A stretch of DNA of 64,000 nt from a virus (Duplodnaviria; Caudoviricetes): positions 1 through 64,000 of IMG/VR virus record IMGVR_UViG_3300021387_000484, one strand, 5' to 3'. Position 1 is the stretch's first letter, and every line of letters starts with the position of its first letter. The notes below the pieces were generated by a model, which was not told the origin of the DNA, did not search any database, and saw only the letters and a list, made by a program, of their open reading frames with translations. This document shows positions 23,645-51,098 of the stretch, piece after piece. The translations under genes and the position numbers were made by a program.

Positions 23645-24457
23645 TCACCTCCTTGTCACCGTATACTGGAATCCGTACTTCTGTGCTTTTTCCTTTAACC
23701 ACTTGTCCCTCATCTCACCAAGCTTGCCGTTCAAACGGTCGCATTCCTTGTCGAATTCGTCTTTCGTGAGAAGCCCTTCCATGTACAGCTTCTCGATAGG
23801 GAAGTATTCCTTGTCCACATCATTTTTGTGTTTTGCCTGCGCATACGCATAGTCCTGCGCGAAATACTCAGACTCTGGGAATTCACCGTCCATGCGCGCA
23901 AGTTCATAGTCCGCTTTATCGGAAGTGGCGCGAATGGAAGCAAGGTTCGCATGTACAAGAAGGTTCAGGTCCTCTGTGCTGAACGTGGTCCCGCTCGGAT
24001 GGTTGTGCGTCAGGTTCGCCCCGTTCATCTTCGCCACCTGCTCCGCCGTGAACGCCACTTGGCTTTTATGTCCTTGGCTCTCCTTGAACAGGACGTTCCC
24101 ATCTGCCTCTATGACATAAGCCGACTCCGTCTTGTTGCTTCGAATGCCCTTTTCGACATTTTCTAGCGATGTCCTGTACTCAGGGCTTACTCCCGCGCCC
24201 TTGACGAGTTTTGGTACACTGGCCTTGCCGGTCGCCTTTTTAGTGGACCTCGCCCGGGAAAAATCTTTCCCCTTTGCCCAGCCCCCTGCGCCGCCAATCG
24301 CCATGCCTTGGGAGTTTAACGGGACATGTTCCCCATTGCTCTTGAGAGTAATCCAGCTGTCTGGCTCCTCTGAATAGGTCCCCTTGGCGTCCATCCGTCT
24401 TTTCCGAAGCGAATGTCTTATCCGCACAAGGGACCGGTCCATTGATAATCTGTCCAT
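23645..24457 (-). CDS. Tagged cargo protein with JAB/MPN-like metalloprotease domain
   Basis: Leader LVRIRHSLRKRRMD plus WITLKSNGEHVPL tag; ESAYV...THNHPSGTTFSTEDL matches the JAB E..HxH..S..D motif. Confidence 0.75.
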   Translation of the reverse strand: MDRLSMDRSLVRIRHSLRKRRMDAKGTYSEEPDSWITLKSNGEHVPLNSQGMAIGGAGGWAKGKDFSRARSTKKATGKASVPKLVKGAGVSPEYRTSLENVEKGIRSNKTESAYVIEADGNVLFKESQGHKSQVAFTAEQVAKMNGANLTHNHPSGTTFSTEDLNLLVHANLASIRATSDKADYELARMDGEFPESEYFAQDYAYAQAKHKNDVDKEYFPIEKLYMEGLLTKDEFDKECDRLNGKLGEMRDKWLKEKAQKYGFQYTVTRR

Positions 24458-24470
24458 AGGTCTGCCCCAC

Positions 24471-24498
24471 TAAAAAAGCAGGGCCGATACCCCGCTTT
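24471..24498 (-). terminator. Rho-independent terminator
   Basis: aaagcgggg-tatcg-gccctgcttttt on the minus strand. Confidence 0.65.
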
Positions 24499-24516
24499 CC
24501 TTCTTTTACAATGTTG

Positions 24517-24810
24517 TCAGAATGTCGGCGGTGGTACCTTTTCCGCAAGCGGTATGGAACGTCCTTTCAGGGAAGACCGCTCTACCACCTTCCCTTCCCA
24601 CGTGTAATATGGGTCTTTCATGTCGGGATAGTCCTCTTTGAGAAAGTACTGCCCTGCCATTTCCTGCATGACATAACACTCAAACGAATGCTTATCTTCA
24701 TCGGTAGCTGTTGGTTTTAATCTGAGGTTGAATGTGTCATCCACAGGTCCGCGCTTATCAACAACTGCCAGTTTCTTCCCCCATCTCGTCTGAGGAGCCA
24801 TTCCTATCAT
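24517..24810 (-). CDS. Small paralog family member 1 (DPYYTWEGKVVER), candidate immunity protein
   Basis: Clear paralog of 32913-33182 and 40945-41244; overlaps the stop of the upstream zincin gene. Confidence 0.7.
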   Translation of the reverse strand: MIGMAPQTRWGKKLAVVDKRGPVDDTFNLRLKPTATDEDKHSFECYVMQEMAGQYFLKEDYPDMKDPYYTWEGKVVERSSLKGRSIPLAEKVPPPTF

Positions 24811-26582
24811 CCTAGCCCAACCTCCTTAATAATCTCATTCATTACATCACGCACTGCCAAAGCCACTTCATTCGGGGTGTCTGAACACCTTGCCATCGCC
24901 ATTGCCTCCGCAAGGAATTCAGTATTTCTGCCATATGACGCAATCTCCTTGATTTTTCCTGTCTTCCAGCTTTTTTGGCATCCCCTATTATTTCCTGAAT
25001 AATTGCTTATCGACTCTCTGACTTCCTGCTCTTTTGCCTTTGAGTAACTGCCGTACAATTTTTCTTGCACACGTTTCATGACAGTGTTGGAAAGTCTGCC
25101 ATCATCGAAGTATATACCCTTCCATTTAGCGGCTTCCATGATGACTTTCTCCATGGCATGCGTAAATTCATGGTCAATAACAGACTTGAAGTCTGTGCCT
25201 TTGGGATGGTGCCCGCTTGAAACGTCCTTTTCATACGCCTTTTTTGCATTATTTCTATACTTTGCGGAAACATTTGCGGGATTCCCGTAAAACCCTTCCG
25301 CAAAACTCAGGTGCGTACCATAGGCATACCCATATGTTCCACTAAAGTCCCTATGGTCTGTCTTCTGGTCTTCATAGAAATCATGGCAGTCCATTCCGCT
25401 AAGTTTTCCCTTGAGAAATGGGAAGTCATCAAAGAATTTCTCTGCCTGCGCACCCATAGCCTTTGCGTTTTCAGGCTTCATCTTGGAGATGTCCACGCCT
25501 AAATCGTTAAATAAAACGCTTTTATTTTGGTCTCCAAAGAAACCTTTTGCTCTGAGGTAATCAGTTACTTCTTCCGACGTTTCGCATTCACTTGCAGAAC
25601 CAAACGCTTTCAGCACAGCTTCATTTCTGGCCTTTGCCGCTTCTTCATATTCTTGTTCGAAAGTCCATGAGTCAATGCTCTTGCCCTGCCCGTGCTGTTC
25701 TATCAAATCTTTTTTCTTTTTAAGGAAGGCTACTTCCCTGTTTTCTTTATCCAAGTCGCTTTTAAATTCTTCGACGTTCATTCGCGAAGTAAGCTCTGTA
25801 AGCGCCTCATTTCTCTCTTTCTTTACTGCCTCCAGCCGTTCACGTTTCTTCTTGGCCTCTTCTGCGTCTGCTTCATGCTCATGGAACATCATCCATGTCT
25901 CCAGTTGCATCCATTCCGTTTTTGTGTCACGGCATATCTTTTCAAGCTCATCGTTTGTCTTGTCTGTCTTATGCCCCTCCAGAATCTTTTCAGCCTTATC
26001 AAGCTTCTTTTGGATAGATTTTGCTTTCTTTTCGGTTTTCGAAAGTTTGTCCTCTACATCCGCTCTCTCGGCTTCGATATCCTTTCCTTCCAATTCTCGT
26101 GCCGCATTTATCTTTTGCAGTATATCACGGCAGTTATCGGACTCCTTCTTTGCGGCTGTTTTAAGTTCTGCTTTTACCGATGAAGTAGTCCCGCCTGATG
26201 GCTTGTCCTCTCCTGCGCCAGCCTTCTTTTTGGAAGTCCTCTTAGCGTTTGAAAAGCTCTTACCCTTGGCCCATCCACCGGCGCCCCCTATGGCCACGCC
26301 GTTCTCATCCAAAGGTACGTGCTCGCCGTTGCTCTTTAAGGTTATCCAGCTGTCGGGCTCCGTGGTATATGGCCCGCCCTTTGCGTCACATCGCCTTTTC
26401 CTGAGGTCATGCCGTATACGGACAATGTCCCTCTCATCCTCTATTATTATAGCATATCCGTTTGTGGTGTCAATTCTGGTTTTGCCTTTTATATGCGTTT
26501 CCGAATGTTTCTGTTCAAGCTTGTCTCTCATTGCCTGACGCACACGGATGGCGGCTATCTTCACTTTCGCGCTGTTGTTCAT
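24807..26582 (-). CDS. Tagged cargo protein: coiled coil plus zincin metallopeptidase
   Basis: Leader IVRIRHDLRKRRCD plus WITLKSNGEHVPL; HEFTH ... EFLAEA. Confidence 0.75.
   Translation of the reverse strand: MNNSAKVKIAAIRVRQAMRDKLEQKHSETHIKGKTRIDTTNGYAIIIEDERDIVRIRHDLRKRRCDAKGGPYTTEPDSWITLKSNGEHVPLDENGVAIGGAGGWAKGKSFSNAKRTSKKKAGAGEDKPSGGTTSSVKAELKTAAKKESDNCRDILQKINAARELEGKDIEAERADVEDKLSKTEKKAKSIQKKLDKAEKILEGHKTDKTNDELEKICRDTKTEWMQLETWMMFHEHEADAEEAKKKRERLEAVKKERNEALTELTSRMNVEEFKSDLDKENREVAFLKKKKDLIEQHGQGKSIDSWTFEQEYEEAAKARNEAVLKAFGSASECETSEEVTDYLRAKGFFGDQNKSVLFNDLGVDISKMKPENAKAMGAQAEKFFDDFPFLKGKLSGMDCHDFYEDQKTDHRDFSGTYGYAYGTHLSFAEGFYGNPANVSAKYRNNAKKAYEKDVSSGHHPKGTDFKSVIDHEFTHAMEKVIMEAAKWKGIYFDDGRLSNTVMKRVQEKLYGSYSKAKEQEVRESISNYSGNNRGCQKSWKTGKIKEIASYGRNTEFLAEAMAMARCSDTPNEVALAVRDVMNEIIKEVGLG
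26446..26473 (-). promoter_or_regulatory. Sigma-A-type promoter embedded in coding sequence
   Basis: TTGACA-N16-TATAAT with a TGn extension, encoded as IDTTNGYAII. Confidence 0.6.
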
Positions 26583-26587
26583 GGCCC

Positions 26588-27736
26588 TTATCCTCCCGTG
26601 TACTTGAATTTACCCGGCTCCTGCCTGATGATTACGACTTTGAGCTTATGATATTTTATTCCGTATTTTTCATCCTTTTTTATTTCGTGCCCAATGACCT
26701 GCACCGTGCACCCTCTTTGGAGAAGCATTTCACATTCATTTGAAATCATATCCTGCCCGGATTTTCCATCCCAGCCTCTGCGGTCGCCGAACCCGTGTGC
26801 TGAAAATGGCTCACAGTACAGACCCTTAGTGCCAGCAGGTGCAAGTATCTCCATGTCAACAAAATCATGTAAACCCGTGCCCCTTGCGGCGCCACAGCTC
26901 ATAAAGCCGTTGTCTGTCCCGATACGTCCTACTAACGATATGTCCTCTTTGTCCGTGCGTGCCAGACACCCCTCCGGGAGTCCAAACATTTTTTCAGCGC
27001 CTCCCCATTCTATTCCCCTGAAGAAAACAGTGTCCTTTTCTATTACCGACTTGTCCAAAACTTCGGTAATGTCCTGTATTTTCTGGGCCACATAGTAGTC
27101 ATCAGCTTCACCGGTTCTAAGAGCACCGTTTATATCTTCGTAATCAAATTTAGTATATTCAAACAGTGCATCCTTCTGCTGGTCCGTGCACTCCTGCCAT
27201 ATCTTTGATGTTTTGGAACGATATCTATTGTCAGCGTCTTTTCTGGTTTCTGCCACTTCTGCCTTTGTAAAGGTTTCCGTGGTAATGCCCATTGCCTTTT
27301 TGTCATCACGGGTGAGCTCGTGGTTCGTTTTAGACTTGCTGGGCAATAACACCTTTGCTGTCTGGCCCGGCTCAAACTTCCTTATTTCGCCTGTTTCCTT
27401 GCAGGCAAAAGTCATTTTGCCTGCGTCGTGAACAGTAAAGTGTTTCCCATCCCCGTCAAGGATGATGACATCGGCACTCTTACTGGCAGTGACAATCTCT
27501 TGCTTCCCCAGAGGATGCGCCTTCATGGATTCCTTGCGCTTCTTGCTGATAGCCGTAAGGTCTTTGCCACTTGTCTTGCGATTATGCTTTCCGTTGCCCT
27601 CTTCAGACCCACCTATCTTCCCGGGGCGCCCTGCATGCCCCCAGTTACCAGAACCCGGCCCCCCGTCCATTCTGCGGTTATGTAGGGAACGCCTGATACG
27701 CTTTATATCCTTCTCTATGGCTTTTATCCTGACCAC
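26588..27736 (-). CDS. Tagged ADP-ribosyltransferase (VIP2/C2-like R-S-E class), paralog 1
   Basis: RIRRSLHNRRMD plus GGPGSGNWGHAGRPG; YT..INGALR, FFRG, FMSC, ECEMLLQRG. Confidence 0.85.
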   Translation of the reverse strand: MVRIKAIEKDIKRIRRSLHNRRMDGGPGSGNWGHAGRPGKIGGSEEGNGKHNRKTSGKDLTAISKKRKESMKAHPLGKQEIVTASKSADVIILDGDGKHFTVHDAGKMTFACKETGEIRKFEPGQTAKVLLPSKSKTNHELTRDDKKAMGITTETFTKAEVAETRKDADNRYRSKTSKIWQECTDQQKDALFEYTKFDYEDINGALRTGEADDYYVAQKIQDITEVLDKSVIEKDTVFFRGIEWGGAEKMFGLPEGCLARTDKEDISLVGRIGTDNGFMSCGAARGTGLHDFVDMEILAPAGTKGLYCEPFSAHGFGDRRGWDGKSGQDMISNECEMLLQRGCTVQVIGHEIKKDEKYGIKYHKLKVVIIRQEPGKFKYTGG

Positions 27737-27762
27737 CTTTCATCCCCCACTTTCTATTCGTA

Positions 27763-28983
27763 TCACTCCGTTTGCTTCCTTTTTTTGGAATACTCTGAAG
27801 CGTCAGGGTCCTGCCTTATCAGGGCAACCTTCAACTTGTGTTGCTTTATCCCCAGTTCATTTACCGCTATCTCATGTCCTATGACTTGGAACGTACATCC
27901 TCTCTGTAAAAGGATTTCGCACTCAGGGGAAATGGCTTTTTGGCTTGATTCCCCATCCCAGTCGAACCCGTCCCCTAATCCATTCTTGGAAAAAGGCTCA
28001 CAATACAATCCCTTCGTGCCTTTCGGTGCAAATATCTCAAGGCTAACATGTGATAGTGTGGAAAATCCTGTTCCTACAGCGGCGCCCGTACTGACAAAGC
28101 CATCATCTGTGCCAATGCGCCCGACCATGGAAATATTCTCTTCTGATACACTTCCCGACAGATATCCTTTAGGAAGTCCAAACAATTTCTCTGCACCGTC
28201 TTTGCTTAACCCCCTATGAAGCACAACATCTCTATCGAATTCCGACCTATTCAGTGCCTCTGTGATTTCGTCAATCGGCTCACTCATGCCCCCGTAATCC
28301 GCTTCTCCTTCTCTAATAGTGCTGTTAACCATCCTGTAGCCAAGGTCGGTATACCAATTTAGACTTCTCTTTGTTTTTTCTGGGCTTTGTTTCCAGACCT
28401 CTCCCGCCTGTTTTCTATATGCATCGTCCGCTTCATTCACGTCCTTAGGGTTGAACGCTTTCCCTATCTTCTGAAGGCTCATGGCCATAGTGGCTTTGTC
28501 TTCCTTTGTAAGCTTATAGTTTGGGTTTTTTATCTCCCCTGAGTCTTTTGGAATGACGACACGTGCTTTTTGGCCAATAAACTCTTTCATAAAGAACCCC
28601 GGCGCACTGGTACCGGTTGTTTCACGCATCCAGCCATGTTTTTCGCGAACAAAGATTTCATCTCCCACGAAGATTTTCGAGCCTGTGATTTTTTTAGCCT
28701 TGTCCATATCTTCTTGTGTGAGCCCGTGCGGCTTTGCAAGCTGTTTGCGCGCCTTTTCAGCTTCTTTTATTGCTTTTGAATGTTCTTGCGAAAAAGATGT
28801 ATAACCGCCTTCTTTTTTTGTCTGGCGATTATGCTTACCGCCACCTTCGCCTGAACCGCCCACTTCCCCCGGGCGCCCCTCGTGCCCCCAGTTGCCTGAC
28901 CCGGGACCACCATCAAAGCGTCTTTTCTTCAAGGAGCGGCGTATCCTTAGAATGCTTTTCTCCATGCTTTTTCTGCTTATCAT
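27763..28983 (-). CDS. Tagged ADP-ribosyltransferase, paralog 2
   Basis: RIRRSLKKRRFD plus GGPGSGNWGHEGRPG; LHRG, FVST, ECEILLQRG. Confidence 0.85.
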   Translation of the reverse strand: MISRKSMEKSILRIRRSLKKRRFDGGPGSGNWGHEGRPGEVGGSGEGGGKHNRQTKKEGGYTSFSQEHSKAIKEAEKARKQLAKPHGLTQEDMDKAKKITGSKIFVGDEIFVREKHGWMRETTGTSAPGFFMKEFIGQKARVVIPKDSGEIKNPNYKLTKEDKATMAMSLQKIGKAFNPKDVNEADDAYRKQAGEVWKQSPEKTKRSLNWYTDLGYRMVNSTIREGEADYGGMSEPIDEITEALNRSEFDRDVVLHRGLSKDGAEKLFGLPKGYLSGSVSEENISMVGRIGTDDGFVSTGAAVGTGFSTLSHVSLEIFAPKGTKGLYCEPFSKNGLGDGFDWDGESSQKAISPECEILLQRGCTFQVIGHEIAVNELGIKQHKLKVALIRQDPDASEYSKKRKQTE

Positions 28984-29007
28984 GTGTTTGCTCCCGTTTC
29001 ATGCAAT

Positions 29008-29040
29008 GAAAAAGGACCAGCCTCATCAGCTAGTCCTTCC
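29008..29040 (-). terminator. Rho-independent terminator after the small Cys gene
   Basis: aaggactagc-tgatgag-gctggtcctt followed by a T run. Confidence 0.7.
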
Positions 29041-29059
29041 TTCGACGGGCGTTCCCGTC

Positions 29060-29314
29060 TCATTCATCATCGTCTTCGCGCAGGTAGTACATGCAGTCCT
29101 TACCGTCAAGCAGTATGGACGGCGGCTTTATGGTGTACGCATCACACGTACCCAGTACCGCGCCGTTCACGGCATCCTTGCCCTTGCCTATGTCCTTTGC
29201 CCTGTACATGCAGTCCTTACAGACCACCTTGTCCACTTCAGGAAACCTGAGCGGGCTTACCGCATCCGGTGCAAGCCTCGGGTTTACCTTTGCCTTTTTC
29301 TTATCCGTTGCCAT
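29060..29314 (-). CDS. Small Cys-rich protein (CKDC..C..C), candidate ART immunity protein
   Basis: Has its own promoter and terminator; sits amid the ART genes; start MATDKK after GGAG. Confidence 0.65.
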   Translation of the reverse strand: MATDKKKAKVNPRLAPDAVSPLRFPEVDKVVCKDCMYRAKDIGKGKDAVNGAVLGTCDAYTIKPPSILLDGKDCMYYLREDDDE

Positions 29315-29355
29315 ATCTTCTCCCCTTCCCATATAAGGTCACTTACTGCGCCTCT

Positions 29356-29383
29356 ATCGTATCATGGCACATGGAAGTGTCAA
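29356..29383 (-). promoter_or_regulatory. Sigma-A-type promoter for the small Cys gene
   Basis: TTGACA-N16-TACGAT with a TGn extension in the intergenic gap. Confidence 0.65.
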
Positions 29384-29391
29384 TAACCCTG

Positions 29392-30567
29392 TCACGAAGT
29401 CTTTGCCCGCTTCTTCGAGTATTTCGATTCTTCAGGGTCCTGCCTTATCAGGGCGACTTTCAGCTTATGGTATTTACCACCATATTCATCCGTCGCTATT
29501 TCATGCCCGATGACTTGGAATGTGCACCCCCTCTGTAAAATAATTTCACATTCTGATGAGAAGTATTTCTGCTTCGATTTCCCATCCCACGAGCGCTTGT
29601 CTCCTAGCCCGTGACTTGAGAAAGGTTCAACGTACATCCCCTTCGTGCCTTTTGGGACATATATCTCCATACTTACGTTTGAATTAAACCCAGTTCCTTC
29701 TGAGGCTCCGGTACTGACAAATGCGTCGTCCGTACCCACTCTGCCAACCATGGATATATTGGACTCTGATGTATGATTGTCGGGAGATAAATATCCCTTG
29801 GGAAGCCCAAACATCTTCTCTGCCGCTTGCCTGTTAATGCCCCTGCGCAGGACCACGTCTTCTTGGAATTCAGATTTATCCAGTGCTTTGGTGACTCTGT
29901 CTATCTTCTCGTTTATTTCGGGTGTCTTTACATTTCCAGACCTCAGACTGTCATTCATATATGTGTACGCAGTCTGCGTGTAACTGTACAGGTCACTCTT
30001 GGTGTCCTCGTCAAGTTCATTCCAGACCCTTCCAGCCTGTGCTCTGTACTTGTCGTCAGCCTTCTTCTTCGTATCCGGGTTGAATGCTTTCCCCATTTTC
30101 TGCTGATTGATTGCCATGGCGGCTTTGTCGTCCTTGGTAAACTTGAAGTTGGGGTTCATTGAATTCGGGATAAATACCCGCACGTCTTTGCCGATATTGT
30201 TTTTGAAATCATCAATGTGAAGCATGCTTCCGTCTTCACTGCACTTGAAGTAATTACCCTCCTGAAAAGACTGATATAATTTCCCGCCATAAAGTATCTT
30301 CACATTAGCATCAGCTTTTGCCGTTTTAATGTCATCCATCGTCAGGCCGTGGGTCTTCGCGCTGTCTCTTCGTTTCTTTGAAAACGACGTAAAGTGCCCT
30401 TCCTTTGATATCTGGCGGTTGTGTTCTCCGCCACCCTCTGCACTGCCACCGACCTCACCCGGGCGTCCAGCATGGCCCCAGTTCCCAGACCCCTCACCGC
30501 CGTCAAATCGCCTGCGTCTGAGTGAGTGCCGTATTCGTATCAGTTGAATTTTCTTTGATAATTCCAT
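29392..30567 (-). CDS. Tagged ADP-ribosyltransferase, paralog 3
   Basis: RIRHSLRRRRFD plus GGEGSGNWGHAGRPG; LRRG, FVST, ECEIILQRG. Confidence 0.85.
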   Translation of the reverse strand: MELSKKIQLIRIRHSLRRRRFDGGEGSGNWGHAGRPGEVGGSAEGGGEHNRQISKEGHFTSFSKKRRDSAKTHGLTMDDIKTAKADANVKILYGGKLYQSFQEGNYFKCSEDGSMLHIDDFKNNIGKDVRVFIPNSMNPNFKFTKDDKAAMAINQQKMGKAFNPDTKKKADDKYRAQAGRVWNELDEDTKSDLYSYTQTAYTYMNDSLRSGNVKTPEINEKIDRVTKALDKSEFQEDVVLRRGINRQAAEKMFGLPKGYLSPDNHTSESNISMVGRVGTDDAFVSTGASEGTGFNSNVSMEIYVPKGTKGMYVEPFSSHGLGDKRSWDGKSKQKYFSSECEIILQRGCTFQVIGHEIATDEYGGKYHKLKVALIRQDPEESKYSKKRAKTS

Positions 30568-30577
30568 TGTCTTTCCC

Positions 30578-31759
30578 TCACGCAGACTTCTTCTTGGGCT
30601 TCTTCTTAGCCATCACCTTTTCGTACTCTGAGTTTGCGTAGTCCTGCCTCACGACGGCTACCTTTATCTTGTGCTTCACTGTTCCGTTTGCCTTAGTCAT
30701 CTCATACCCGATGACCTGCAAGGTCGTACCTCTTTGAAGAATCGTCTCACACTCACGGGAGAAGTCGCTCTGAGGGGAATGACCGTCCCAGTCAGTATCA
30801 CCATTCCCCATCTCTGAGAACGGTTCTGCATACAAGCCCTTCGTGCCTTTCGGGCACATGATTTCCAGTGATACATTTTTAAAGCTGAACCCGGTGCCCT
30901 GAGAAGAGCCACAGCTCATGAAGCCGTCGTCCGTGCCTATCCTGCCGACAAGGTTCATGTTGGACATCCGCATGTGTTTGTCAGGGTTTAAGTAGCCTCT
31001 TGGGAGCCCCAGCATCTTCTCTGCCGCCTCCTCGTCAATGCCCCTGTAAAGGACCACGTCCTCTTTGAATTCAGATTTATTGATTGCTTTTGTAATGGCA
31101 TTTATCCTCTTCTGCGTAAGACTGGTCGTATCGCTGTCGGCCCCGCGCAGGCTCTTGTTTATGGTCTTGTATCCGCTTGACGTGTAGCCTACCAATGCAT
31201 CTTTTGTGCCCTGAGGACAGCTGTTCCAGACTTCACCGGACTGTGCCCTGTACTTGTCGTCCGCTTCCTTTCTTGTATCGGGATTAAACGCTTTGTCCAT
31301 CTGCGTGCGGCTCAGCTTCATGGCGTTGCGGTCATCCTTGGTCACCTTGTAATTGGGGTTCATGCTGTTTGGAATGATGACCTTGACGGACTCGCCTTCC
31401 TTGAACTTGCGTATCTTACCCGTTTCCTTGCAGAAAAAGTTCGTGCCAATGGTATTGCGGTAGTGGTTCCCTTCGCTGTCCACGATGATGACATCCCAGT
31501 TATCCTGTGCCGCCTTCAGGTCACCGGCACTGAGCGCGTGCACCTGTGCCGCCTTTTTGCGTTCCCTGCTAAAAGATGTGAAGTTGTCTTGAAAATCCTT
31601 CTGGCGGTTGTGCTTCCCACCGCCTTCAGCGCTTCCACCCACTTCTCCGGGACGGCCTGCGTGGCCCCAGTTGCCTGAGCCTTCGCCCCCGTCCATGCGC
31701 CCTGCGAGCGACTTCCTTATGCGTTTCAGGCTCTTATACATGAGCTTTTCATCAAACAT
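30578..31759 (-). CDS. Tagged ADP-ribosyltransferase, paralog 4
   Basis: RIRKSLAGRMD plus GGEGSGNWGHAGRPG; LYRG, FMSC, ECETILQRG. Confidence 0.85.
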   Translation of the reverse strand: MFDEKLMYKSLKRIRKSLAGRMDGGEGSGNWGHAGRPGEVGGSAEGGGKHNRQKDFQDNFTSFSRERKKAAQVHALSAGDLKAAQDNWDVIIVDSEGNHYRNTIGTNFFCKETGKIRKFKEGESVKVIIPNSMNPNYKVTKDDRNAMKLSRTQMDKAFNPDTRKEADDKYRAQSGEVWNSCPQGTKDALVGYTSSGYKTINKSLRGADSDTTSLTQKRINAITKAINKSEFKEDVVLYRGIDEEAAEKMLGLPRGYLNPDKHMRMSNMNLVGRIGTDDGFMSCGSSQGTGFSFKNVSLEIMCPKGTKGLYAEPFSEMGNGDTDWDGHSPQSDFSRECETILQRGTTLQVIGYEMTKANGTVKHKIKVAVVRQDYANSEYEKVMAKKKPKKKSA

Positions 31760-32912: not shown

Positions 32913-33182
32913 CTATACGGTCGGAATAGAACGTCCCGCAAGCGACGCCCTCTCGACGACTTTCCCCTCCCACGTGTAGTAGGGGTCAGTCATTTTTGGA
33001 TGGTCCTTGGCAAGGTAGTATGCACCGCCCGACTCATTCATGACGTAGTCCTCGAAGTCCCTTTTCTCCTTGTCTGTTGCTGAGGGCTTTAACCGCAGGT
33101 TGAAAATATCGTACTCATCCCCGTACCGGTCCACTGTTTCCAGTTTGTTCCCCCATATCTGTTCAGGTGACTTTGGTGCCAT
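32913..33182 (-). CDS. Small paralog family member 2 (DPYYTWEGKVVER)
   Basis: AGGAGG RBS; paralogy with 24517 and 40945. Confidence 0.7.
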   Translation of the reverse strand: MAPKSPEQIWGNKLETVDRYGDEYDIFNLRLKPSATDKEKRDFEDYVMNESGGAYYLAKDHPKMTDPYYTWEGKVVERASLAGRSIPTV

Positions 33183-35121: not shown

Positions 35122-35134
35122 CTGTTTTCCCCAC

Positions 35135-35162
35135 AAAAAAAGGACAGCTTTCACTGTCCTTT
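35135..35162 (-). terminator. Rho-independent terminator
   Basis: aaaggacag-tgaaag-ctgtcctttttt. Confidence 0.75.
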
Positions 35163-43463: not shown

Positions 43464-43466
43464 CGG

Positions 43467-45548
43467 TCACCCCTTTCTTTTGAGCAGTGCGTCTCTGATA
43501 CGTGCCACTTTGTCTTCGATACGCAAGGTGCCTGAAGGTCCTTCTTCGGCGCTGTCCCGGTTCTTATTCGGCGCTATCATGCCCGGCACAAGTATCTCCG
43601 ACTCGCCATTCGTAAACACACTCCCGTAGGTATCTATGGGCCTTATCTCCGCCTCGTAGACCACCCCGTTCGGGTCGAACTTTGCCCCCTGTCCGACATC
43701 GCTTCCTGTAAAGCTCTCCGCCACCTTCCTGCTGAATGTGTAGGATGAAAAAGGGGAAACTCCGTCATATTCCTTGCCTGTCCCGCCCCTGTACATCTTG
43801 ATTGGCGTAACCAAGAATTCGTCATACGGAAGCGGCTCGGTACCCTGTTCCTTGCAGAAATATTTGTAGTTGCCGTACATGATGTTCAGTGCGGCATTAT
43901 GCACCTCAGGGCTTTTGGTCATCTGTGCTACAAGGGCTTCTTTGACTTCGTGGTTGTATTCCGTAAACCACTGGTGGACAGTGCCGCTGTACAGGTTGTC
44001 GGCCAGTGTCTCATCAGCCTCGTCCCTGCTCACCTCTTTGAAGTCCTTGGAGCAAAGGGCAAGTCTTGTCTTGTTGTATTCTTCTTTGCACGCCTCGTAC
44101 CCGTCACCGCCCTCATCCTCTATCTTGTGATAAAAGCCGTAGAGCATCTTTGGGTTCCGCTTGTTGCCTATGTTCTTCTTCACAAAATCATCGAAGCTGT
44201 CTTCAAGGGTTACATCGTACCCAGTCTGCGCTGGCTTTAATGCGTCTGTGAGGCTATCCGCGCTTGGCGGCCCACTACGCAAAAGAGCAGGTCCTTTCGA
44301 ACCCGCTCCCGTCTTTACGCTCTTGGCGCGTGAAAATGTCTTGCCCGTAAGCTTGCCGCCCGACTGTGCCACACCCTGTTCATTGAGAAGCACATGCGTC
44401 CCTTTGACTGTTATCCAATCCTCTTCATCAGCCCTTTCCTTTATGGACTGGCGAATCCGATTAATCCTGTCCTCGATTGAAAGGCTATCCTTGTCATCCA
44501 CCCCTTTCAAAGAATCGCTGTTCTTACGCTTCCTCTTTTTTCTCGGTGTAAATGTATATGTAAACCCAAACTTCGCGGCGTTCTTCTTGTAAAACTCATG
44601 GAACGGTTCCGTTTCCAGCCTGCGGGCTTCCTCTTTCACCTTTGCCTTGTACGATTCATTGTAATCGTTATATCCTGATTCCTTCGTATAGGCATTGAGT
44701 TCGTCATTGGTGGCACCGGAATTTTTCATCTCCATCCACTTGTTTTGTATCTTATGCATTTCCCGCATCTCATGGCAGTTCTCAAGGTTTTCCCTCGCCT
44801 GCTGAAGAAGAGCGAATGCACTTACGTCCCTTGGCATTTCAGCTTCAAGAGCATCCCGCATGTCATGCCATCCCCTTGCCTGTTCTTTCGTACCGTACTT
44901 GTCGTTGACAAGGGAATATGTGCCCTCAGGGCAGGCAATGACCATCTCTCTCGCACCAAATCCAAAATCGTCAAGGTCTTCGGGGGAGAATGTCCCGCCC
45001 TCCGGGTGGTTGTGAATGGAAATGTTGCCTTCCATGTGTTGGCGCTTCTCACCGACCTTGGCGTATACTGAGCCGTGTTCGCCCCTCTTTTCCAGAACGA
45101 TGTTCCCGTCCGTGTCTACGATTCTGAGCTGTTCCTTCCTGAGGTTTGCCGTCTTGCTGATTATCTGCCTGATAGTCTTGTCCTGCGCGGCGGGTCTTTG
45201 ATAAGGCTTTGCTTTTCTGGTGCTCTTTGCTTTCGTAAAGGACATCCCTGCAAGTTTTCCGCCCGACTGAGCCACGCCTTCTTCGTTTAAGAGAACGTGA
45301 GTGCCCTTTATGGTCACCCAGTCCTCTTCGTCTTTGTTCTCGTTCTTCGTATCTGTGTAATCAGCAAGGTCTATGACCTCGCCGTCCCACCGCATGTATG
45401 GAACAGACATCTGCGGATAGAGCGACCTGTAAAACTGCGTCCAGCCATATGTGTTACGGCTCTTTTCGAACCTTCCCTTTTCTATCGCGGTCGCCTGCTT
45501 TGTCATGCAGTCCGCTCTTTCGTCATAGTGCGGTATCTTCATGTCCAT
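43467..45548 (-). CDS. Two-cassette cargo protein: JAB-like protease plus ADP-ribosyltransferase-like domain
   Basis: WVTIKGTHVLL then IHNHPEGGTFSPEDL; internal leader RIRQSIKERAD plus WITVKGTHVLL, then MYRG..FSSYT..ESEILV. Confidence 0.75.
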   Translation of the reverse strand: MDMKIPHYDERADCMTKQATAIEKGRFEKSRNTYGWTQFYRSLYPQMSVPYMRWDGEVIDLADYTDTKNENKDEEDWVTIKGTHVLLNEEGVAQSGGKLAGMSFTKAKSTRKAKPYQRPAAQDKTIRQIISKTANLRKEQLRIVDTDGNIVLEKRGEHGSVYAKVGEKRQHMEGNISIHNHPEGGTFSPEDLDDFGFGAREMVIACPEGTYSLVNDKYGTKEQARGWHDMRDALEAEMPRDVSAFALLQQARENLENCHEMREMHKIQNKWMEMKNSGATNDELNAYTKESGYNDYNESYKAKVKEEARRLETEPFHEFYKKNAAKFGFTYTFTPRKKRKRKNSDSLKGVDDKDSLSIEDRINRIRQSIKERADEEDWITVKGTHVLLNEQGVAQSGGKLTGKTFSRAKSVKTGAGSKGPALLRSGPPSADSLTDALKPAQTGYDVTLEDSFDDFVKKNIGNKRNPKMLYGFYHKIEDEGGDGYEACKEEYNKTRLALCSKDFKEVSRDEADETLADNLYSGTVHQWFTEYNHEVKEALVAQMTKSPEVHNAALNIMYGNYKYFCKEQGTEPLPYDEFLVTPIKMYRGGTGKEYDGVSPFSSYTFSRKVAESFTGSDVGQGAKFDPNGVVYEAEIRPIDTYGSVFTNGESEILVPGMIAPNKNRDSAEEGPSGTLRIEDKVARIRDALLKRKG

Positions 45549-45556
45549 CTCCGTTA

Positions 45557-45775
45557 TCAGAGCATAATACCCTCTTTAGGCGGGTCAACGTAATAGTCCC
45601 ACGGATGCTTTTCATCGACGCATCGCTTGTAGAAAGCCTCCGTCTTTTCGTCTGGCTTTCTAAACCACGGGTTCATGTTCCCCGCGCCGAACATCCCGAT
45701 ATAATCAGCTGTGTGCGGAAAGCCCTGTTCCCTCATCAAATCAGCTATGGCCTTATCCCTCTGTGTCAGTTTCAC
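45557..45775 (-). CDS. Small hypothetical protein coupled to the portal fusion gene
   Basis: Overlaps the portal stop codon (GTGA). Confidence 0.55.
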   Translation of the reverse strand: MKLTQRDKAIADLMREQGFPHTADYIGMFGAGNMNPWFRKPDEKTEAFYKRCVDEKHPWDYYVDPPKEGIML

Positions 45776-48700
45776 TTCTTGAAAGCCTCCTTGTAAGTAG
45801 CTTCCGCCGCCGCATACATATTGGGCGTTATCGCCTTGAGCAGTTCCAACTCACTCTCATGCCCGAAAGCCTTGAGCTCACAATAGTTTGCCCAATACTC
45901 TAAACATTTTGCGGACGCTCTCCCGCCCCCAGATGGGGTCAGCCAATAATCACGGCTATGACCACCGTAAAACATCAACCCACCACTGTATTCCTCTGTC
46001 AGTGCACTCACCGCATCACTGACCGCGCTGAGGTCCTGAACTATCTGCTGATGCCCCCATTCCATAAACTTTTTAAAGGCGTTGTCGCGTTCCTCGTCGT
46101 TTGCGAACCACCCATCACCGTTTGTCTTAAAACCGATGACTTTTGCCATCGCTTCAAAGTCTTCCTTTGCCCTCTTTCCACCATATGGCACAAGGTGTTC
46201 AAGGTTCATCGAAGCAGATGTTATTCTGATTTTCTGTCCGTCCATTGTGTCGTATTCTATGTCCACAGCACCGTCGTCAAGAGCATGCCCCATCTCATGG
46301 ATGAATGTCTCTGCCCCTCGTATTGAACCGAAATAGACTTTTCCGTCCATTGGGTCAAAGTATGACGTTTGTCCCTCTTGCAACTTCTCGATATCCGTTT
46401 TTCTGAGGGTTTTTTCATAGACTGCCCTGACTTCATCAGGCATCGCCTTATAAGCTTCCCTCAGGCGCTGGACCTCATGCTGGCTTGCACCGTTGAGTCC
46501 GAAATTGATATCAAAGAAATCACCTTCTACCTTCTGCCCGGACAGCATGGTCATGTTATCGCACAGGTCTCCGTCTTCAGATTCCCAGTCATTGTTGCCG
46601 CAATACCGGTAATTCCTGCCGTCCTTGCCAACTATGACGGTGCCTTCGCCGACCTCGGACAGGTCTTCTTTCTGCATGGTCACCTGTGCTTTTTCAAGGA
46701 GCGGTTTGTCTGCCTCCCAAGGGGAATCTTGGTTCCTGAAGTTCTTTGCGGCGTGCTTCCTTTGCGCCTCCTCTTTTTCCTCCTCTGATTTAGCGGACTT
46801 GCTTATGTATGCCCGCGTTTCAGCTTCTCTGTCAAGAAAGATGTCCGTGATATCCCCGGACTTCCACGAACCGCTCTCGCCAGTCCCGTACTCGCGCCAC
46901 CTTCCTGAGTCCGTCTTGATGTATCTATAGGATTCATCCCCGTCGGATGATTCAGGTACAGTGATAATCGAGCCTGTTTCTAAGGTATCAAGCAGTTCTG
47001 CCACCTTCCTCTGGTCATCCCTGCGGGACTCGCTGGTAGATTTTTCCGCAATATCAGACAGTTCCTTGTTCAGTTTGCTCTTGGAGGGTTGGAAGAGCGG
47101 CATCTTCGTTTTTCCCACCTTTTTGGTGGTATTCTCACTTTCCGCATCCGGGAAAGACATGCCCTTCAGGTCGCCGCCGTTCTGAGCGGTCCCCTCATCG
47201 TCTATCAGGATGTGTGTCCCGTTGACGGTAATCCACTGCTCATCGTCGGCATGGATGTTCTTTCCAGTAATCGTCTGCACCAGCTTCTGGAAGCCGACCT
47301 CGAAAGGTCTGAACAGCCGCCCTGAGTGTTCTATCTCCTCAATGGCGGTAAACCTCGCCTGATGCATTTCCTCTTCGTCGCACTTTGGCGTCCCCTCATA
47401 CCTGACACATAAGAACAGGTCGGGGCACAGGCCGTTCGTCTGCTTCTCGCCCTTGCCAAATGGTATCAGCTCCATGGGCGTTATGCCGAATTCTTCCTGT
47501 GTCTCACGGATGGCCGCCTGCCCCGGTGTCTCACCTTCTTCGATATGGCCGCCCGGACCGCAGATAAGGTGTTCGCCGTCGCCCGCGCCACGGACGCCTG
47601 TGAGTACCATGCCGTCCTTTATCACGTATACGCCGACTGCGCCCTGAGCGCCTGCGTCCATGCACGCCTCTTCCCTGACGCTGTCGCCGTAGGCTTTATA
47701 CCCGGCCCCCGTGAAGGCTTTGTAGCGCTTGCCGTCCCTGCCGACTATCTCCTCGGTGTAAAGGTCGCTAATAGCCGGTTTTTGGCCGTCCTCGTCCTCT
47801 CTGGATGCCGTTCTGTAATCCCTTATAGAGATATCCCCCTTGCGGGTTCGGACCAGCCTAGAGCCGTGTGGCGGCCTTACAGGCACATTGCCAAGCCATG
47901 CGCTCCTGAGTGTGTCTTCAGGTTCCTCTGTGCCGTGCCATGCTCTCTTTAAGGTGTCGTCTTCTGGCTTAACCCCAAACCACGCATTGCGCAGGGTATC
48001 AGCCGGGTCCTTCTTTACCTCGGGCTCTTCTTTTGGCTCTTCCTTGGGGGTGTTCCCAAGCCACGCGTTCCTGAGGGTGTCGCCGGGCAGGGGAGCCTTA
48101 GAGGGATTGATAATCCTCTCTGCCCCTTCCTGCTCGCCGCCCTGTGCTGTGATTCCAAGCCATGCGTTGCGCAGGGTATCCTCAGGCTCCGCGTCCTGAT
48201 TCTTCTCTTCCTGTGGCTTTTCGGCCTCAGGCTTCTTTGCCGCAGGCTCCTTAGGCAGTGCCTTTGACCCTTCTGGCTTTATCATTTCAGACTTACCGGC
48301 AAGCTGTTGTTTCGCTTCATTTGCCTTTGCCTGTTCCTTGCCGCTCATATCTACCGGCAGTTTCGTGGCCGCTGGCGCCGCCGCAGGTGCGTTCCCGCCA
48401 AGGTCTGTATCCTTAGGTTTGCCGCCCTGTGCAAGCTCTGGCTTTACGCCCGCTTTCTTCGGGTCTGCCTTGGGCTGTACCTTGCCAGACGGAACTCCGC
48501 CCATAGGGTCTTTTTCACCCGCTGGCATCCCCTCTGGCTGTTGTGCTTTTGGCTTTTCTCCGCTCTCTGGCGCGCCCTCAGCAGATGCTCCTTCAGGCGG
48601 CATCATACCCGGCATACCGCCCGGTGCTCCGCCTTCTGCGCCCGGCATACCGCCGCCCATACCCGGCATTCCTTCCATGCCCGGCATACCGCCGCCCTCT

Positions 48701-50136
48701 GCCTGCTTCTTCATGGGGTCGTTCTCTTCCAACTCTTCCTCGGTATACTCGTCAAGCATGGTCTCGACATCGAATTCCTCGGAATCAGCAAGCTTCTTTC
48801 TGACCTCGGACGGGTCAAGGGCCTGCATCTGGACGTATACCATAGCGGTATTTGCCTTGGTGTTCTCCACCTGTGCCCGCATCTGGTCAAGGGATACTTC
48901 CTCCTGCTCAGACAAGGACCACAGTGGGTTAAATTCCACCTTTATCGGCGGGACTTCGTCTATCTCACCGGACAAAACCCCCGCCTGAAAGATGATGGAA
49001 AGAAGATACCTCAGGTTCTTCTTGAGCATCCGCTTCTGGATGCGCTCCACGTAGTTGTACCAGTTCTCAAGGTCGCCCATGCCTGTAGAGTTCATCCCCG
49101 CCGGTGACCTGCCGAACAGGATGGTCTGCGGAATGGATGTCAGTGCCGACAGGAAGTTGCATGTCGTGTCGATGACCTCGGAAACGCCCGTGAATGAAAA
49201 TTGCCTGAAGCTGTAATCCTCTCCCTCGCTGTCAATGGTGATGGAGTTCAAAAGCCCCCTCGCCATGTCGATGGTCTGAAGGCGCCTCAGCACTCTGTCC
49301 TCGCCTTCTTCGGTAGCAAGCTCAGCAGACAGGTCCTTCATGGAGTAGACCGCCTGTATGGACCTGTCGAGCATCTTCGGTGCAGTGCCGTGGGCTATCT
49401 CCGCATCCCTTATCGCTTTTTTGAGACGCACGTACTCGGGCATGCCCCAAAGCTGATAATAGGAATTGGACGTGTTCTCGGGCAGTATCCCGTTCTGGAA
49501 TACAAGGCATCTGGAATCGTGCACCCTGAAATTCCCGTACTTGCTGAACACGTCATAGTATTCAGGCATCCCCAGCCTGCTACCTCTGGTCCCGAACGGG
49601 TCATCCGGGTCATAGGAGAACATAGTGCTGTAGTCTGGCTGTATCAGGGACCGGTCATACACCCGTATATCGTCTATGGACTTGATGTTCCTCCAGTCAA
49701 GGGGCTCGTCAACGCCCCTGCCGTCATTAATCATCAGAACGGCTATGGAACCTCCAAAGAGCCTTGCCCACTTGATGCAGGTCATGGCCGTCTCTTCCCA
49801 GTCCAGTTCGTCAAGGGCCTCCATGTAGAAGTCCTCTATCTCTTGGTCTTTTACGTCCTTGAGCTCAAACCCGTGCTTTATCGCCTCCTCTGCGGGAGCG
49901 TCAATGATTTTTGAAAAAAGCCCGTTCCCCTCGTAGAACATGGTCAGTTCGTCGTCGGGAATCGGCGGCTCCTGCTTGAATTCATACCGTTCCGAAGAAT
50001 CTCTCGAAGTGCCGTACTTTGTGAGCAGGTTGACGTAACCGTCCATCCGGTAGGGCCTGACGACTCTGCCGGTCTGCTTCCGTATTAAATCTGTATAGCG
50101 TCTCAGTGAGTCTATCTTTTCCTGCCTGCTTGCCAT
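45772..50136 (-). CDS. Portal protein (DUF1073-type) fused to linker, NUDIX hydrolase and zincin peptidase (1454 aa)
   Basis: N-terminal ~470 aa: KIIDAPAEEA..WARLFGG..IPQTILFGRSPAGMNSTG..DLENWY..FNPLW. Nudix box GGHIEEGETPGQAAIRETQEEFG; WITVNGTHIL tag; HEMGH. Confidence 0.85.
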   Translation of the reverse strand: MASRQEKIDSLRRYTDLIRKQTGRVVRPYRMDGYVNLLTKYGTSRDSSERYEFKQEPPIPDDELTMFYEGNGLFSKIIDAPAEEAIKHGFELKDVKDQEIEDFYMEALDELDWEETAMTCIKWARLFGGSIAVLMINDGRGVDEPLDWRNIKSIDDIRVYDRSLIQPDYSTMFSYDPDDPFGTRGSRLGMPEYYDVFSKYGNFRVHDSRCLVFQNGILPENTSNSYYQLWGMPEYVRLKKAIRDAEIAHGTAPKMLDRSIQAVYSMKDLSAELATEEGEDRVLRRLQTIDMARGLLNSITIDSEGEDYSFRQFSFTGVSEVIDTTCNFLSALTSIPQTILFGRSPAGMNSTGMGDLENWYNYVERIQKRMLKKNLRYLLSIIFQAGVLSGEIDEVPPIKVEFNPLWSLSEQEEVSLDQMRAQVENTKANTAMVYVQMQALDPSEVRKKLADSEEFDVETMLDEYTEEELEENDPMKKQAEGGGMPGMEGMPGMGGGMPGAEGGAPGGMPGMMPPEGASAEGAPESGEKPKAQQPEGMPAGEKDPMGGVPSGKVQPKADPKKAGVKPELAQGGKPKDTDLGGNAPAAAPAATKLPVDMSGKEQAKANEAKQQLAGKSEMIKPEGSKALPKEPAAKKPEAEKPQEEKNQDAEPEDTLRNAWLGITAQGGEQEGAERIINPSKAPLPGDTLRNAWLGNTPKEEPKEEPEVKKDPADTLRNAWFGVKPEDDTLKRAWHGTEEPEDTLRSAWLGNVPVRPPHGSRLVRTRKGDISIRDYRTASREDEDGQKPAISDLYTEEIVGRDGKRYKAFTGAGYKAYGDSVREEACMDAGAQGAVGVYVIKDGMVLTGVRGAGDGEHLICGPGGHIEEGETPGQAAIRETQEEFGITPMELIPFGKGEKQTNGLCPDLFLCVRYEGTPKCDEEEMHQARFTAIEEIEHSGRLFRPFEVGFQKLVQTITGKNIHADDEQWITVNGTHILIDDEGTAQNGGDLKGMSFPDAESENTTKKVGKTKMPLFQPSKSKLNKELSDIAEKSTSESRRDDQRKVAELLDTLETGSIITVPESSDGDESYRYIKTDSGRWREYGTGESGSWKSGDITDIFLDREAETRAYISKSAKSEEEKEEAQRKHAAKNFRNQDSPWEADKPLLEKAQVTMQKEDLSEVGEGTVIVGKDGRNYRYCGNNDWESEDGDLCDNMTMLSGQKVEGDFFDINFGLNGASQHEVQRLREAYKAMPDEVRAVYEKTLRKTDIEKLQEGQTSYFDPMDGKVYFGSIRGAETFIHEMGHALDDGAVDIEYDTMDGQKIRITSASMNLEHLVPYGGKRAKEDFEAMAKVIGFKTNGDGWFANDEERDNAFKKFMEWGHQQIVQDLSAVSDAVSALTEEYSGGLMFYGGHSRDYWLTPSGGGRASAKCLEYWANYCELKAFGHESELELLKAITPNMYAAAEATYKEAFKK
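47890..48180 (-). repeat. Five DTL(R/K)xAW(L/F/H)G peptide repeats in the portal linker
   Basis: DTLRNAWLG, DTLRNAWLG, DTLRNAWFG, DTLKRAWHG, DTLRSAWLG. Confidence 0.85.
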
Positions 50137-50156
50137 GCTCTCTCCTTACGGCGCAT

Positions 50157-50186
50157 GAAAAAAGGAGGCTGTGCGCCTCCCTCTTT
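50157..50186 (-). terminator. Rho-independent terminator before the portal gene
   Basis: ggaggc-gcaca-gcctcc followed by TTTTTT. Confidence 0.7.
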
Positions 50187-50225
50187 CCCGTATCTTATGT
50201 ATGTGCCCTCGCGGGCCGTTCCGTG

Positions 50226-50537
50226 TTACTCCAAATCATCCTCGTCATCGTCATCGTCTTCCCGTTCGGGAAGGTCGTCGTAGACCTCGTTCATGCAATC
50301 AAGCATGTACTCAAGCCTCTGCTGTGCGTCCAGCGCCGCCCTGACGTTCTCTGTGACCTTCACGTCGTCATGCCCGCCGAAGTGCTTGTTCAGCTCCTCG
50401 ACGGAGTTGTCCTCGAAGAATCCCTCAGGGAGCGTGTCCAGATAGTCGACGATAGCGTCGAAGACTTCCAGTTCCGCATCCGACAGCGCGTTCACTTTCT
50501 TCTTGGCTTCAGCCGCCAGCTTCGTAAGTTCACCCAT
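50226..50537 (-). CDS. Small, highly acidic protein
   Basis: AGGAGG RBS; D/E-rich with an acidic tail. Confidence 0.7.
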   Translation of the reverse strand: MGELTKLAAEAKKKVNALSDAELEVFDAIVDYLDTLPEGFFEDNSVEELNKHFGGHDDVKVTENVRAALDAQQRLEYMLDCMNEVYDDLPEREDDDDDEDDLE

Positions 50538-50552
50538 ATAAACCTCCTCCTC

Positions 50553-51098
50553 TTATAACTTGGACCTTCTCTCGGCGGTCTTTCCACCCCTGCTCTTGTT
50601 GCCGCCCCTCGTGGTGCGGTTGGGGAAAGCATACTGGATAGCCGCCCTTGTACCGGAGATTTTGGATACGCTGGACTCTCTCGCCCTCTTGCCGCGTCCC
50701 TTGACATCCTTGAGGATGTTCGCGCTTGCATGCTCATCAATCTGCCTTACGACCTGATAGCCCTTCTTCCCGGCGTTCTTCACATTAGCGGACTTGACGT
50801 TCATGTTTACCTTGCCCATGCGCTTCTGCGCGCGGGCAAGTGCCTTCGGGCTCCGCATCTGCATGGCAAGGGAATGAGCCTCTTTCATTTCGCGCCTCAC
50901 CTTTGCCTGAGAAGTGTACGTTTTTGAAACAGTCTTCAGCATGCGGAAGCCCCTGCCGCCTCCGGGAGCCGACCCGCCTTTATGTCCGGGTACGCCGACG
51001 TGTCCCCAGTTGCCGCTTCCTTCACCGCCATCTTCACGCCTGCGTCTTTTCAGGCTCTTCCTTATCGTTTCCACTTTCCTGAGAGTCCTTGTTTCCAT
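50553..51098 (-). CDS. Tagged, highly basic protein
   Basis: AGGAGG RBS; TIRKSLKRRRRED plus GGEGSGNWGHVGVPGHKGGS, then a K/R-rich body. Confidence 0.7.
   Translation of the reverse strand: METRTLRKVETIRKSLKRRRREDGGEGSGNWGHVGVPGHKGGSAPGGGRGFRMLKTVSKTYTSQAKVRREMKEAHSLAMQMRSPKALARAQKRMGKVNMNVKSANVKNAGKKGYQVVRQIDEHASANILKDVKGRGKRARESSVSKISGTRAAIQYAFPNRTTRGGNKSRGGKTAERRSKL

Follow-up and report, generated by a model that had tools for sequence, protein, structure and literature searches.

The DNA studied here is a stretch of 64,000 nucleotides (hereafter the window) that makes up the first 64 kb of the Caudoviricetes record IMGVR_UViG_3300021387_000484 of IMG/VR, which is 100,088 bp long and 99% complete according to CheckV. 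Between terL, the gene of the large terminase, and the gene of a DUF2213 prohead protease fused to a scaffold, it holds approximately 27 kb in which 13 proteins carry the same recurrent parts: a basic leader, a predicted protease site, one of two conserved peptide motifs (tag 1 and tag 2), and a payload. This block is probably an unbundled arsenal of phage polyvalent proteins, i.e., 13 capsid-interior proteins made of address, protease site, tag, and payload, that are matured by the prohead protease. Under this reading, the targeting element would be a basic amphipathic helix (N-terminal, once C-terminal) or an attachment to the portal, to the head protein MuF, or to the preceding cassette. 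It would be followed by a site of the DUF2213 protease ([R/N/H]-x-D, then G, A, or S), and the conserved tag and the enzyme payload would complete the cassette. During head maturation, the protease would strip the leaders and cut the polyproteins, each payload would remain in the head as a domain of its own with the tag as its new N-terminus, and the released payloads would exit with the DNA at infection. The cargo represents approximately one quarter of the 100-kb genome of this gut phage, including four paralogous ADP-ribosyltransferases (ARTs) and one polyprotein of five cassettes, which makes the phage an extreme case.

We searched for the tags by scanning the six reading frames with regular expressions and by running profiles built from the copies in the window against the whole 100,088-bp record. 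Tag 1 (DGG[PE]GSGNWGHxG[RV]PGxxGGS) has five copies, in the genes at 26588, 27763, 29392, 30578, and 50553 (E-values from 2e-31 to 4e-36). Tag 2 has 13 copies (6e-24 to 8e-19 in the profile search of the whole record): one in each of the genes at 23645, 24807, 33193, 33538, and 41718 and in a portal fusion at 45772, two in the gene at 43467, and five in that at 35385. The stretch from terL to the prohead protease contains all 18 tags, and the profile search of the record revealed no copy outside positions 24,242 to 51,098. A preliminary description of the window had given the same counts in the same genes, and had spoken of about a dozen proteins made from the same parts and of a modular enzyme set in the head module; our analysis bears this out. 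The leader (R[IV]RxSLxxRR) was found by regular expression at 10 places. Eight are N-terminal, one lies 55 residues into the protein encoded at 24807, where it is the second of a doubled leader, and one lies at the C-terminus of a protein of 693 amino acids (aa), the leader thus occurring at either protein end. Looser copies are present in the protein encoded at 50553 and inside that encoded at 43467.

The repetition of the tags is a property of the peptide more than of the DNA. Between copies, nucleotide identity is 57–75%, and the third-codon positions of identical residues are only 24–47% identical. Since the peptide was kept while the third positions diverged, the repetition has been maintained by selection on the peptide and does not reflect recent duplication; the low third-position identity also rules out recent gene conversion of the tags. 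Tag 1 is invariant at 14 of its 21 positions across bacterial and archaeal viruses. Its GRPG core might be read as an AT-hook, but several copies have V or I in place of the Arg, whose column is not among the invariant ones, which excludes this. In structural models, the leader is a helix (residues 3–23 in the AlphaFold2 [AF2] model of a 93-aa protein of the block), tag 1 is disordered (predicted local distance difference test [pLDDT] 24–31), and tag 2 is a small beta-hairpin (pLDDT 82–86, with strands at 54–57 and 63–66 in the AF2 model of the same 93-aa protein).

The residue directly before the GG of tag 1, which would be the P1 residue of the cut, is constant within a phage and variable between phages in the IMG/VR loci. 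Across 92 multi-tag proteins with 307 tags, P1 agrees in 76% of the pairs within a protein, and in 97% when L and A are merged, against 21% and 30% after shuffling (at most 28% and 36% in any of 1000 shuffles). Residues P2 and P4–P5 are variable. P1 co-varies with the family of the prohead protease. The [RNH]xD/GG class accompanies a canonical DUF2213 protein in 17 of 20 IMG/VR records, as well as in this phage, the three misses being fragments of 10–39 kb. The [RK]x[LA]/GG class accompanies a divergent DUF2213-like protein in seven records out of seven. A Peptidase_S77 of the T4 gp21 type is present with [LIF]xE/GG in G022 and G023 and in 0 of 18 other records; in the D class, the search for it covered the relatives G001 and G009, not G000, and gave no match. 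The Mu gpI-type protease (Mu-like_Pro) accompanies x[DLH]L/GG in three of three records, which are close relatives, and occurs in none of 22 others. A single case, the Dehalococcoidia prophage L126, associates K/GG with a Peptidase_S78 (HK97-type) protein. HK97-type proteases cut after Lys. The prohead protease of T4 recognises L/I-x-E, with which the association of the [LIF]xE class with S77 agrees. We also take gp245, the prohead protease of phage SPN3US, to belong to the S77 (T4 gp21-type) family. gp245 cleaves an x-X-E motif on the C-terminal side of its Glu and prefers Ser at P1' (PMC10052503). For tag 2, a motif [RKHN]xD[AGSDE] lies at most 16 aa upstream in 89% of 255 instances, compared with 9.7% at random positions.

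The same sites recur in the capsid and scaffold proteins. The major capsid protein of this phage (19826–20905, minus strand, like all the relevant genes; Pfam Major_capside, given as DUF2184 in the preliminary description) has TRFD/SADDASVFF at aa 33–37, a site of the same type as in the cargo and conserved in relatives. The D-class capsid proteins have [RHN]FD/[SD] just ahead of a conserved DASVFFAREL, approximately 35 residues in. The acidic scaffold, which is fused to the DUF2213 protease (21443–23053; Pfam), has conserved xD/G or xD/S sites at aa 173, 206, 470, and 507, the last of which would release a basic C-terminal helix. D-class scaffolds show [KR]D/S some 30 residues ahead of their C-terminus, as well as [NRH]LD/GK. 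In the [RK]x[LA] class, the scaffold has PR[VTA][LA]/ at the equivalent place and the capsid protein has R[SA][LA]/SPL[ST]DKAQV. Because the site, and not the tag, co-varies with the head machinery, we read the cassette as address, cleavage site, tag, and payload. From these patterns we infer cleavage at the predicted sites, the role of the leader as an address, and the packaging and ejection of the cargo.

Several points weigh against this reading. All the cleavage sites are predicted. The tags of one phage are paralogues, so that the constancy of P1 could be partly inherited instead of selected, and the three Mu-type records count as one lineage. We found no protease family for the N/GG class or for seven K/GG records when searching for S78, S77, ClpP, S78_2, DUF2213, and Mu-like_Pro, and one LxE record that is 93% complete has no detectable S77. 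The exact scissile bond at tag 2 is ambiguous, with several Asp residues upstream. The sites of the capsid and scaffold proteins have no tag, hence the tag is dispensable for cleavage. Finally, the likeness between the leader and the C-terminal helix of the scaffold is compositional only. In addition, a scan of the loci L048, L057, and L167 revealed no protease, and a weak protease match in G028 was rejected because it is a tail-fibre-like open reading frame (ORF).

Tags are far more widespread than this phage. The profile search, in which 8,000 candidates were scored, found tag 1 in at least 1,688 proteins from phages of widely differing kinds, with one to seven copies per protein spaced by 150–400 residues, i.e., one ahead of each domain. 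The payloads include ART-PolyVal, zeta, ParB, 2H, PI-kinase-like, Fic, GNAT, and NUDIX domains, and many have no Pfam domain. Among the 120 tag-1 proteins listed, 18 are fusions with MuF or with a portal of either of two families (PF04860 and PF06381), and none has a conjugation domain. Stand-alone genes thus carry the tags here, and fusions to portal or MuF carry them elsewhere, in line with the earlier proposal that the cargo had been decoupled from MuF. Tag 1 is rare in 185,579 species genomes (59 stretches), yet its matches are taxonomically very broad, including Clostridia, Proteobacteria, Acidobacteriota, Saccharibacteria, Dehalococcoidia, and archaeal metagenome-assembled genomes (MAGs). 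The tagged ORFs sampled from these genomes are MuF, portal, or NUDIX fusions; the MuF proteins with tag 1 in a Terriglobus MAG (L093 1237–4086) and in a Dehalococcoidia MAG (L126 1102–3795) hold Hint/intein domains (Intein_splicing, PT-HINT). Searches of cultured phages for tag 1 with tblastn gave nothing, probably due to the low-complexity filter.

Tag 2 forms 540 clusters among 1.84 billion representatives in the profile search. It is mostly found at residues 20–70 of proteins of 160–600 aa, the remainder being multi-copy polyproteins. A canonical DUF2213 is present in 12 of the 16 IMG/VR contigs with tag 2a, the other four being fragments of 12–17 kb, and tag 2 is so far confined to DUF2213 phages. 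This agrees with the expectation that it would be limited to phages of the DUF1073/DUF2213/DUF2184 type. With tblastn, tag 2 had no match in 72,556 plasmids, and its one match in cultured phages was at chance level. Pfam contains neither tag, and the tag strings were not found in the searchable literature.

The function of the tag itself is harder to assign. One possibility, which we hold tentatively, is that tag 1 (in its general form GGxGSGN[FWH]GHxGxPGxxGGS) and the lineage-restricted tag 2 act as a portable signal on the new N-termini of released cargo, independently of portal, scaffold, and protease. Such a signal might, for example, hold the cargo in the DNA-filled head or lead it out via the tail. 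That the tag serves after cleavage as a retention or exit handle, independent of lineage-specific head proteins, is a guess made with low confidence. Proteins that consist of little more than a leader and a tag recur: the 93-aa leader and tag-2 protein of this phage is kept in relatives (P0039), and other small tag-only proteins exist (P0258 and P0265), which suggests that the tag has a role of its own. We also considered an Asn-mediated self-cleavage at GN/F, by analogy with NPTH and nodavirus sites.

The preliminary description had instead seen the tags as a capsid address that binds capsid, scaffold, portal, or MuF to load the payloads. We find this unlikely, even if the tag is the most conserved element of every cassette, some polyproteins have only 7–10 residues ahead of their first tag, small tag-only proteins exist (33196–33474 here), and the absence of tags from the capsid and scaffold sites makes the tags specific to the cargo. 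A single address would suffice, whereas each domain of a polyprotein has its own tag, with as many as seven in one protein. A peptide that binds lineage-specific head proteins should also co-vary with them; tag 1 remains invariant across the portal families PF04860 and PF06381 and at least four protease families, with no shared scaffold, and it is the residue before the tag that varies. Moreover, MuF is undetected in the complete tag-1 genomes G028 and G043, which rules it out as the partner of the tags. The tags are therefore probably not the loading address, for which the leader helix or the fusion to portal or MuF is a better candidate.

A reading without any cleavage, in which the tags are conserved linkers between domains and the residue before them was inherited through duplication within lineages, seems improbable to us. 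The paralogy of the tags within a phage, the linker-like disorder modelled for tag 1, and the predicted nature of the cleavage sites would all fit. Linkers, however, are not normally invariant at two thirds of their positions (14 of 21) between bacterial and archaeal viruses, and here the peptide is kept while its synonymous sites are saturated. Within one phage, the P1 motif also recurs in capsid and scaffold proteins, which are unrelated to the cargo, and the LxE class coincides with the protease family of known x-x-E specificity. It is more improbable still that the cargo is processed by its own zincin and JAB peptidases, with the tags as their recognition sites. The block does include three zincin-motif and two JAB-like domains, and metallopeptidase domains have been argued to cut polyvalent proteins into units (PMC5512222). 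However, the residue before the tag tracks the family of the prohead protease and recurs in capsid and scaffold proteins, many of the listed tag-1 proteins have no peptidase domain in Pfam, and the zincin and JAB assignments are here based on motifs. Lastly, we give very little credit to the idea that the tags are DNA-level recombination handles for shuffling cassettes, comparable to the pre-toxin motifs of polymorphic toxins: the same payloads do occur behind either tag in many combinations, but the nucleotide and third-position identities given above leave no long identical DNA within this genome.

Returning to the cassettes matured by the prohead protease, the cargo genes of the window follow terL (51180–53360; Terminase_6N/6C) in the order given here. 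The first encodes a protein of 181 aa (50553–51098) with a leader, an RRED/GG site, tag 1 (50970–51032), and a Lys/Arg-rich tail. The second (45772–50136) encodes a portal (Phage_portal_3), a low-complexity linker, a NUDIX domain, tag 2 (47134–47259), and a domain with the zincin motif HEMGH. The linker that joins the portal domain to NUDIX has a GMPG-rich low-complexity stretch and, after it, approximately five short repeats of (P)EDTLRNAWLG (approximately 47900–48250, aa ~630–750). The third (43467–45548), characterised from sequence and profile searches, encodes the two-cassette protein of 693 aa. Its first cassette has tag 2 (45219–45344) followed by a domain with a RadC/JAB-like motif, and its second has an internal leader and tag 2 (44316–44438) followed by an ART-like domain. 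It ends with an NRD/S site and a leader-like helix (43476–43502), as the scaffold ends with its basic helix. An untagged ORF resembling an adenine methylase (NPPF; 42930–43463, minus strand) has a TTG start in frame, one codon past the TGA of the 693-aa protein, and read-through or coupling between the two is conceivable.

The next cargo gene (41718–42905) encodes a doubled leader, tag 2 (42663–42791), and a Zeta_toxin kinase (Pfam and profile searches). It is followed by the gene of the 1,809-aa polyprotein (35385–40814), whose five tag-2 cassettes have their tags at 40431–40556, 39636–39761, 38478–38603, 37173–37295, and 36096–36230, and whose payloads are identified at the level of motifs. 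Every one of these payloads is found elsewhere as a separate single gene with its own leader and tag. Then come a protein with a leader, an RRMD/A site, tag 2 (34912–35040), a coiled-coil region, and an HEMAH zincin-motif domain (33538–35154); the payload-less 93-aa protein with a leader and tag 2 (33196–33474; tag at 33205–33330); and MuF, a stand-alone protein of 304 aa with neither tag nor payload (31771–32685; Phage_Mu_F). The four ART genes are in tandem (block 26588–31759; genes at 26588–27736, 27763–28983, 29392–30567, and 30578–31759). Each encodes a leader, an RxD/GG site, tag 1 (27605–27667, 28852–28914, 30442–30504, and 31631–31693, respectively), a small middle domain, and a C3/VIP2-like ART. 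The last two cargo genes encode a doubled leader, an RRCD/A site, tag 2 (26235–26369), a coiled-coil region, and an HEFTH zincin-motif domain (24807–26582), and a leader, an RRMD/A site, tag 2 (24242–24376), and a RadC/JAB-like domain identified by its HNHPSG motif (23645–24457).

The payload types named in the preliminary description fared unequally. Pfam confirms the four ARTs (ADPrib_exo_Tox), Zeta_toxin, and NUDIX, as well as portal_3, MuF, and DUF2213, and the AF2 model of the first ART matches the C3, VIP2, and Certhrax ARTs (Foldseek E-value 4e-12). The JAB/RadC-like (HNHPSG, HNHPEG), zincin (HEFTH, HEMAH, HEMGH), ParB-like (GRHR), second-ART-class, and nuclease-like payloads are recognised by short motifs and have no sequence support in Pfam or the Protein Data Bank. 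Searches of Pfam and PHROGs gave no family for the leader, tag 1, tag 2, or the JAB, zincin, ParB-like, and polyprotein payloads. Payload families are shared between the tags: the same family can follow tag 1 in one protein and tag 2 in another.

The block also holds several small ORFs. Some follow payloads, at 29060–29332 and at 35162–35413 (Cys_rich_CPCC). Three small paralogues of 97, 89, and 99 aa (24517–24810, 32913–33182, and 40945–41244, minus strand) share the pattern ...HP[ED]M.DPYYTWEGKVVER.SL.GR.IP., and two of them are downstream of zincin-motif genes, one directly and one past the tag-only gene. The same module forms the N-terminus of the 693-aa protein and of some tagged polyproteins elsewhere (P0225 and P0276); it may serve as an alternative leader, or as a partner or inhibitor. 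Neither an alternative genetic code nor read-through explains the array, whose genes end in ordinary stops (TGA 15, TAA 8, TAG 1). The G+C content of the cargo block is 0.47–0.52 (24000–46000), compared with 0.54–0.58 in the flanking structural genes, which fits a fast turnover or a foreign origin of the cassettes. In terL, an insert of approximately 260 aa (52461–53273, minus strand) splits the Walker A loop (GGSAGGGK / insert / THGLLL, as read from the sequence). It begins with Ala, not Cys or Ser, ends with VVTHN followed by T, and includes two LAGLIDADG-like motifs. These features resemble those of an intein that carries a homing endonuclease, perhaps of the Ala-1 or class 3 type; no Pfam intein family matches it at an E-value of 0.1 or below.

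The nearest cultured relative, Faecalibacterium phage FP_Brigit, has a portal that is 54% identical and the same order of head genes, with only a short portal extension and without the tag-bearing genes. In this extension (L001 7790–10276, aa ~670–690), DRMD/FNEADHPRDENGQF stands ahead of a C-terminal domain. The motif HPRDxxGxF after an RxD site, also present in P0131 and P0144, may represent a third type of tag. The C-terminal domain of the 1,809-aa polyprotein (GENVPCTG..., 35388–36077, minus strand) is followed by the Cys_rich_CPCC zinc-ribbon protein (35162–35413), and the same domain ends the FP_Brigit portal, where a small protein of this kind (gp31; L001 10260–10448) comes next. To judge from sequence, domain and CPCC protein are a conserved pair of the toxin/partner type.

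If the proposed maturation is correct, sequence alone would suffice to deduce where prohead proteases that are still uncharacterised cut. The predicted specificities would be [R/N/H]-x-D for DUF2213, [R/K]-x-[L/A] for its divergent clade, and x-x-L for the Mu gpI type. It would also provide a simple route to capsid-delivered effectors in metagenomic phages, where a tag of 21 residues marks at least 1,688 proteins, many of whose payloads are unknown to Pfam, and a testable means of packaging foreign proteins in phage capsids. The current view, in which polyvalent proteins are divided by metallopeptidases of their own, would have to be revised. If the tags were indeed portable signals, they would represent a general rule of protein delivery for the tailed viruses of bacteria and archaea, and a handle already at hand for bringing foreign proteins into phage heads.

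Comparison with known systems places this block among several families of capsid cargo. Phage-type polyvalent proteins (Iyer, Burroughs, Anand, de Souza, and Aravind 2017) unite many disparate effector domains and are predicted to be packaged and injected (PMC5512222). Like the cargo described here, they are encoded among the head genes between portal and terminase and are often fused to portal or MuF; here, one of the tagged proteins is itself a portal fusion. The repertoires have ART, zincin, ParB-like, RadC/JAB, NUDIX, and kinase domains in common, several of them being identified here by motif, and relatives with the same tags carry PF18760 (ART-PolyVal). The Pfam models of the PolyVal and LPD series give no significant match to the proteins of the window (the best are LPD39, with an E-value of 0.021, and Kinase-PolyVal, with 0.11). 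The proteins encoded at 35385–40814 and 43467–45548 and the fusion of portal, NUDIX, and zincin motif at 45772–50136 have the multiple domains typical of polyvalent proteins. The other ten tagged proteins have one payload each, that at 33196–33474 having none. In contrast to polyvalent proteins, the arsenal is thus mostly split into single-payload genes with their own leaders. Iyer et al. propose that polyvalent proteins are processed by embedded metallopeptidases (PMC5512222), and the text of that study, as searched, does not describe inter-domain tags, leaders, or sites matched to a protease.

In T4, the internal proteins IPI–III and Alt, which are non-essential and include an ART, have a short N-terminal capsid-targeting peptide that brings them into the prohead core and is removed at a fixed motif by the prohead protease gp21, and they are injected with the DNA (PMC9958956). 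On computational grounds, the present cargo resembles them in having a short terminal peptide that ends at a prohead-protease motif and in including ARTs. The tag-1 phages with an S77 protease, which have [LIF]xE ahead of the tag, are T4-like in this respect. The phage of the window differs in that its protease is a DUF2213 protein with an xD site instead of S77/gp21. It also differs by its basic helical leaders of approximately 20 aa, a conserved tag past the site, concatenated cassettes, and a portal fusion, all as read from the sequence. The ejection proteins of SPN3US, which are substrates of gp245, lose N-terminal propeptides at a fixed P3–P1 motif, as proven by proteomics (PMC10052503). 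The SPN3US protease loses a C-terminal propeptide, and the same is predicted here for the C-terminal helix of the scaffold. SPN3US and other phiKZ-like phages differ by the family and motif of their protease and by the absence of a shared tag, and the sites described here are predicted.

MuF polymorphic toxins (Jamet et al. 2017, PMC5576092) resemble the block in tying toxin-like domains, including ARTs, to a head protein, and in having small genes downstream that possibly encode immunity or partner proteins. In contrast to them, MuF is here a bare protein to which no payload is fused, and no motif is mentioned by Jamet et al. The term "candidate new system" used in the preliminary description was too strong. 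What appears to be undescribed is the grammar of cut site plus tag, found in well over a thousand phage proteins. The system itself belongs with the phage-type polyvalent proteins and the T4-like targeted internal proteins, and not with the MuF toxins.

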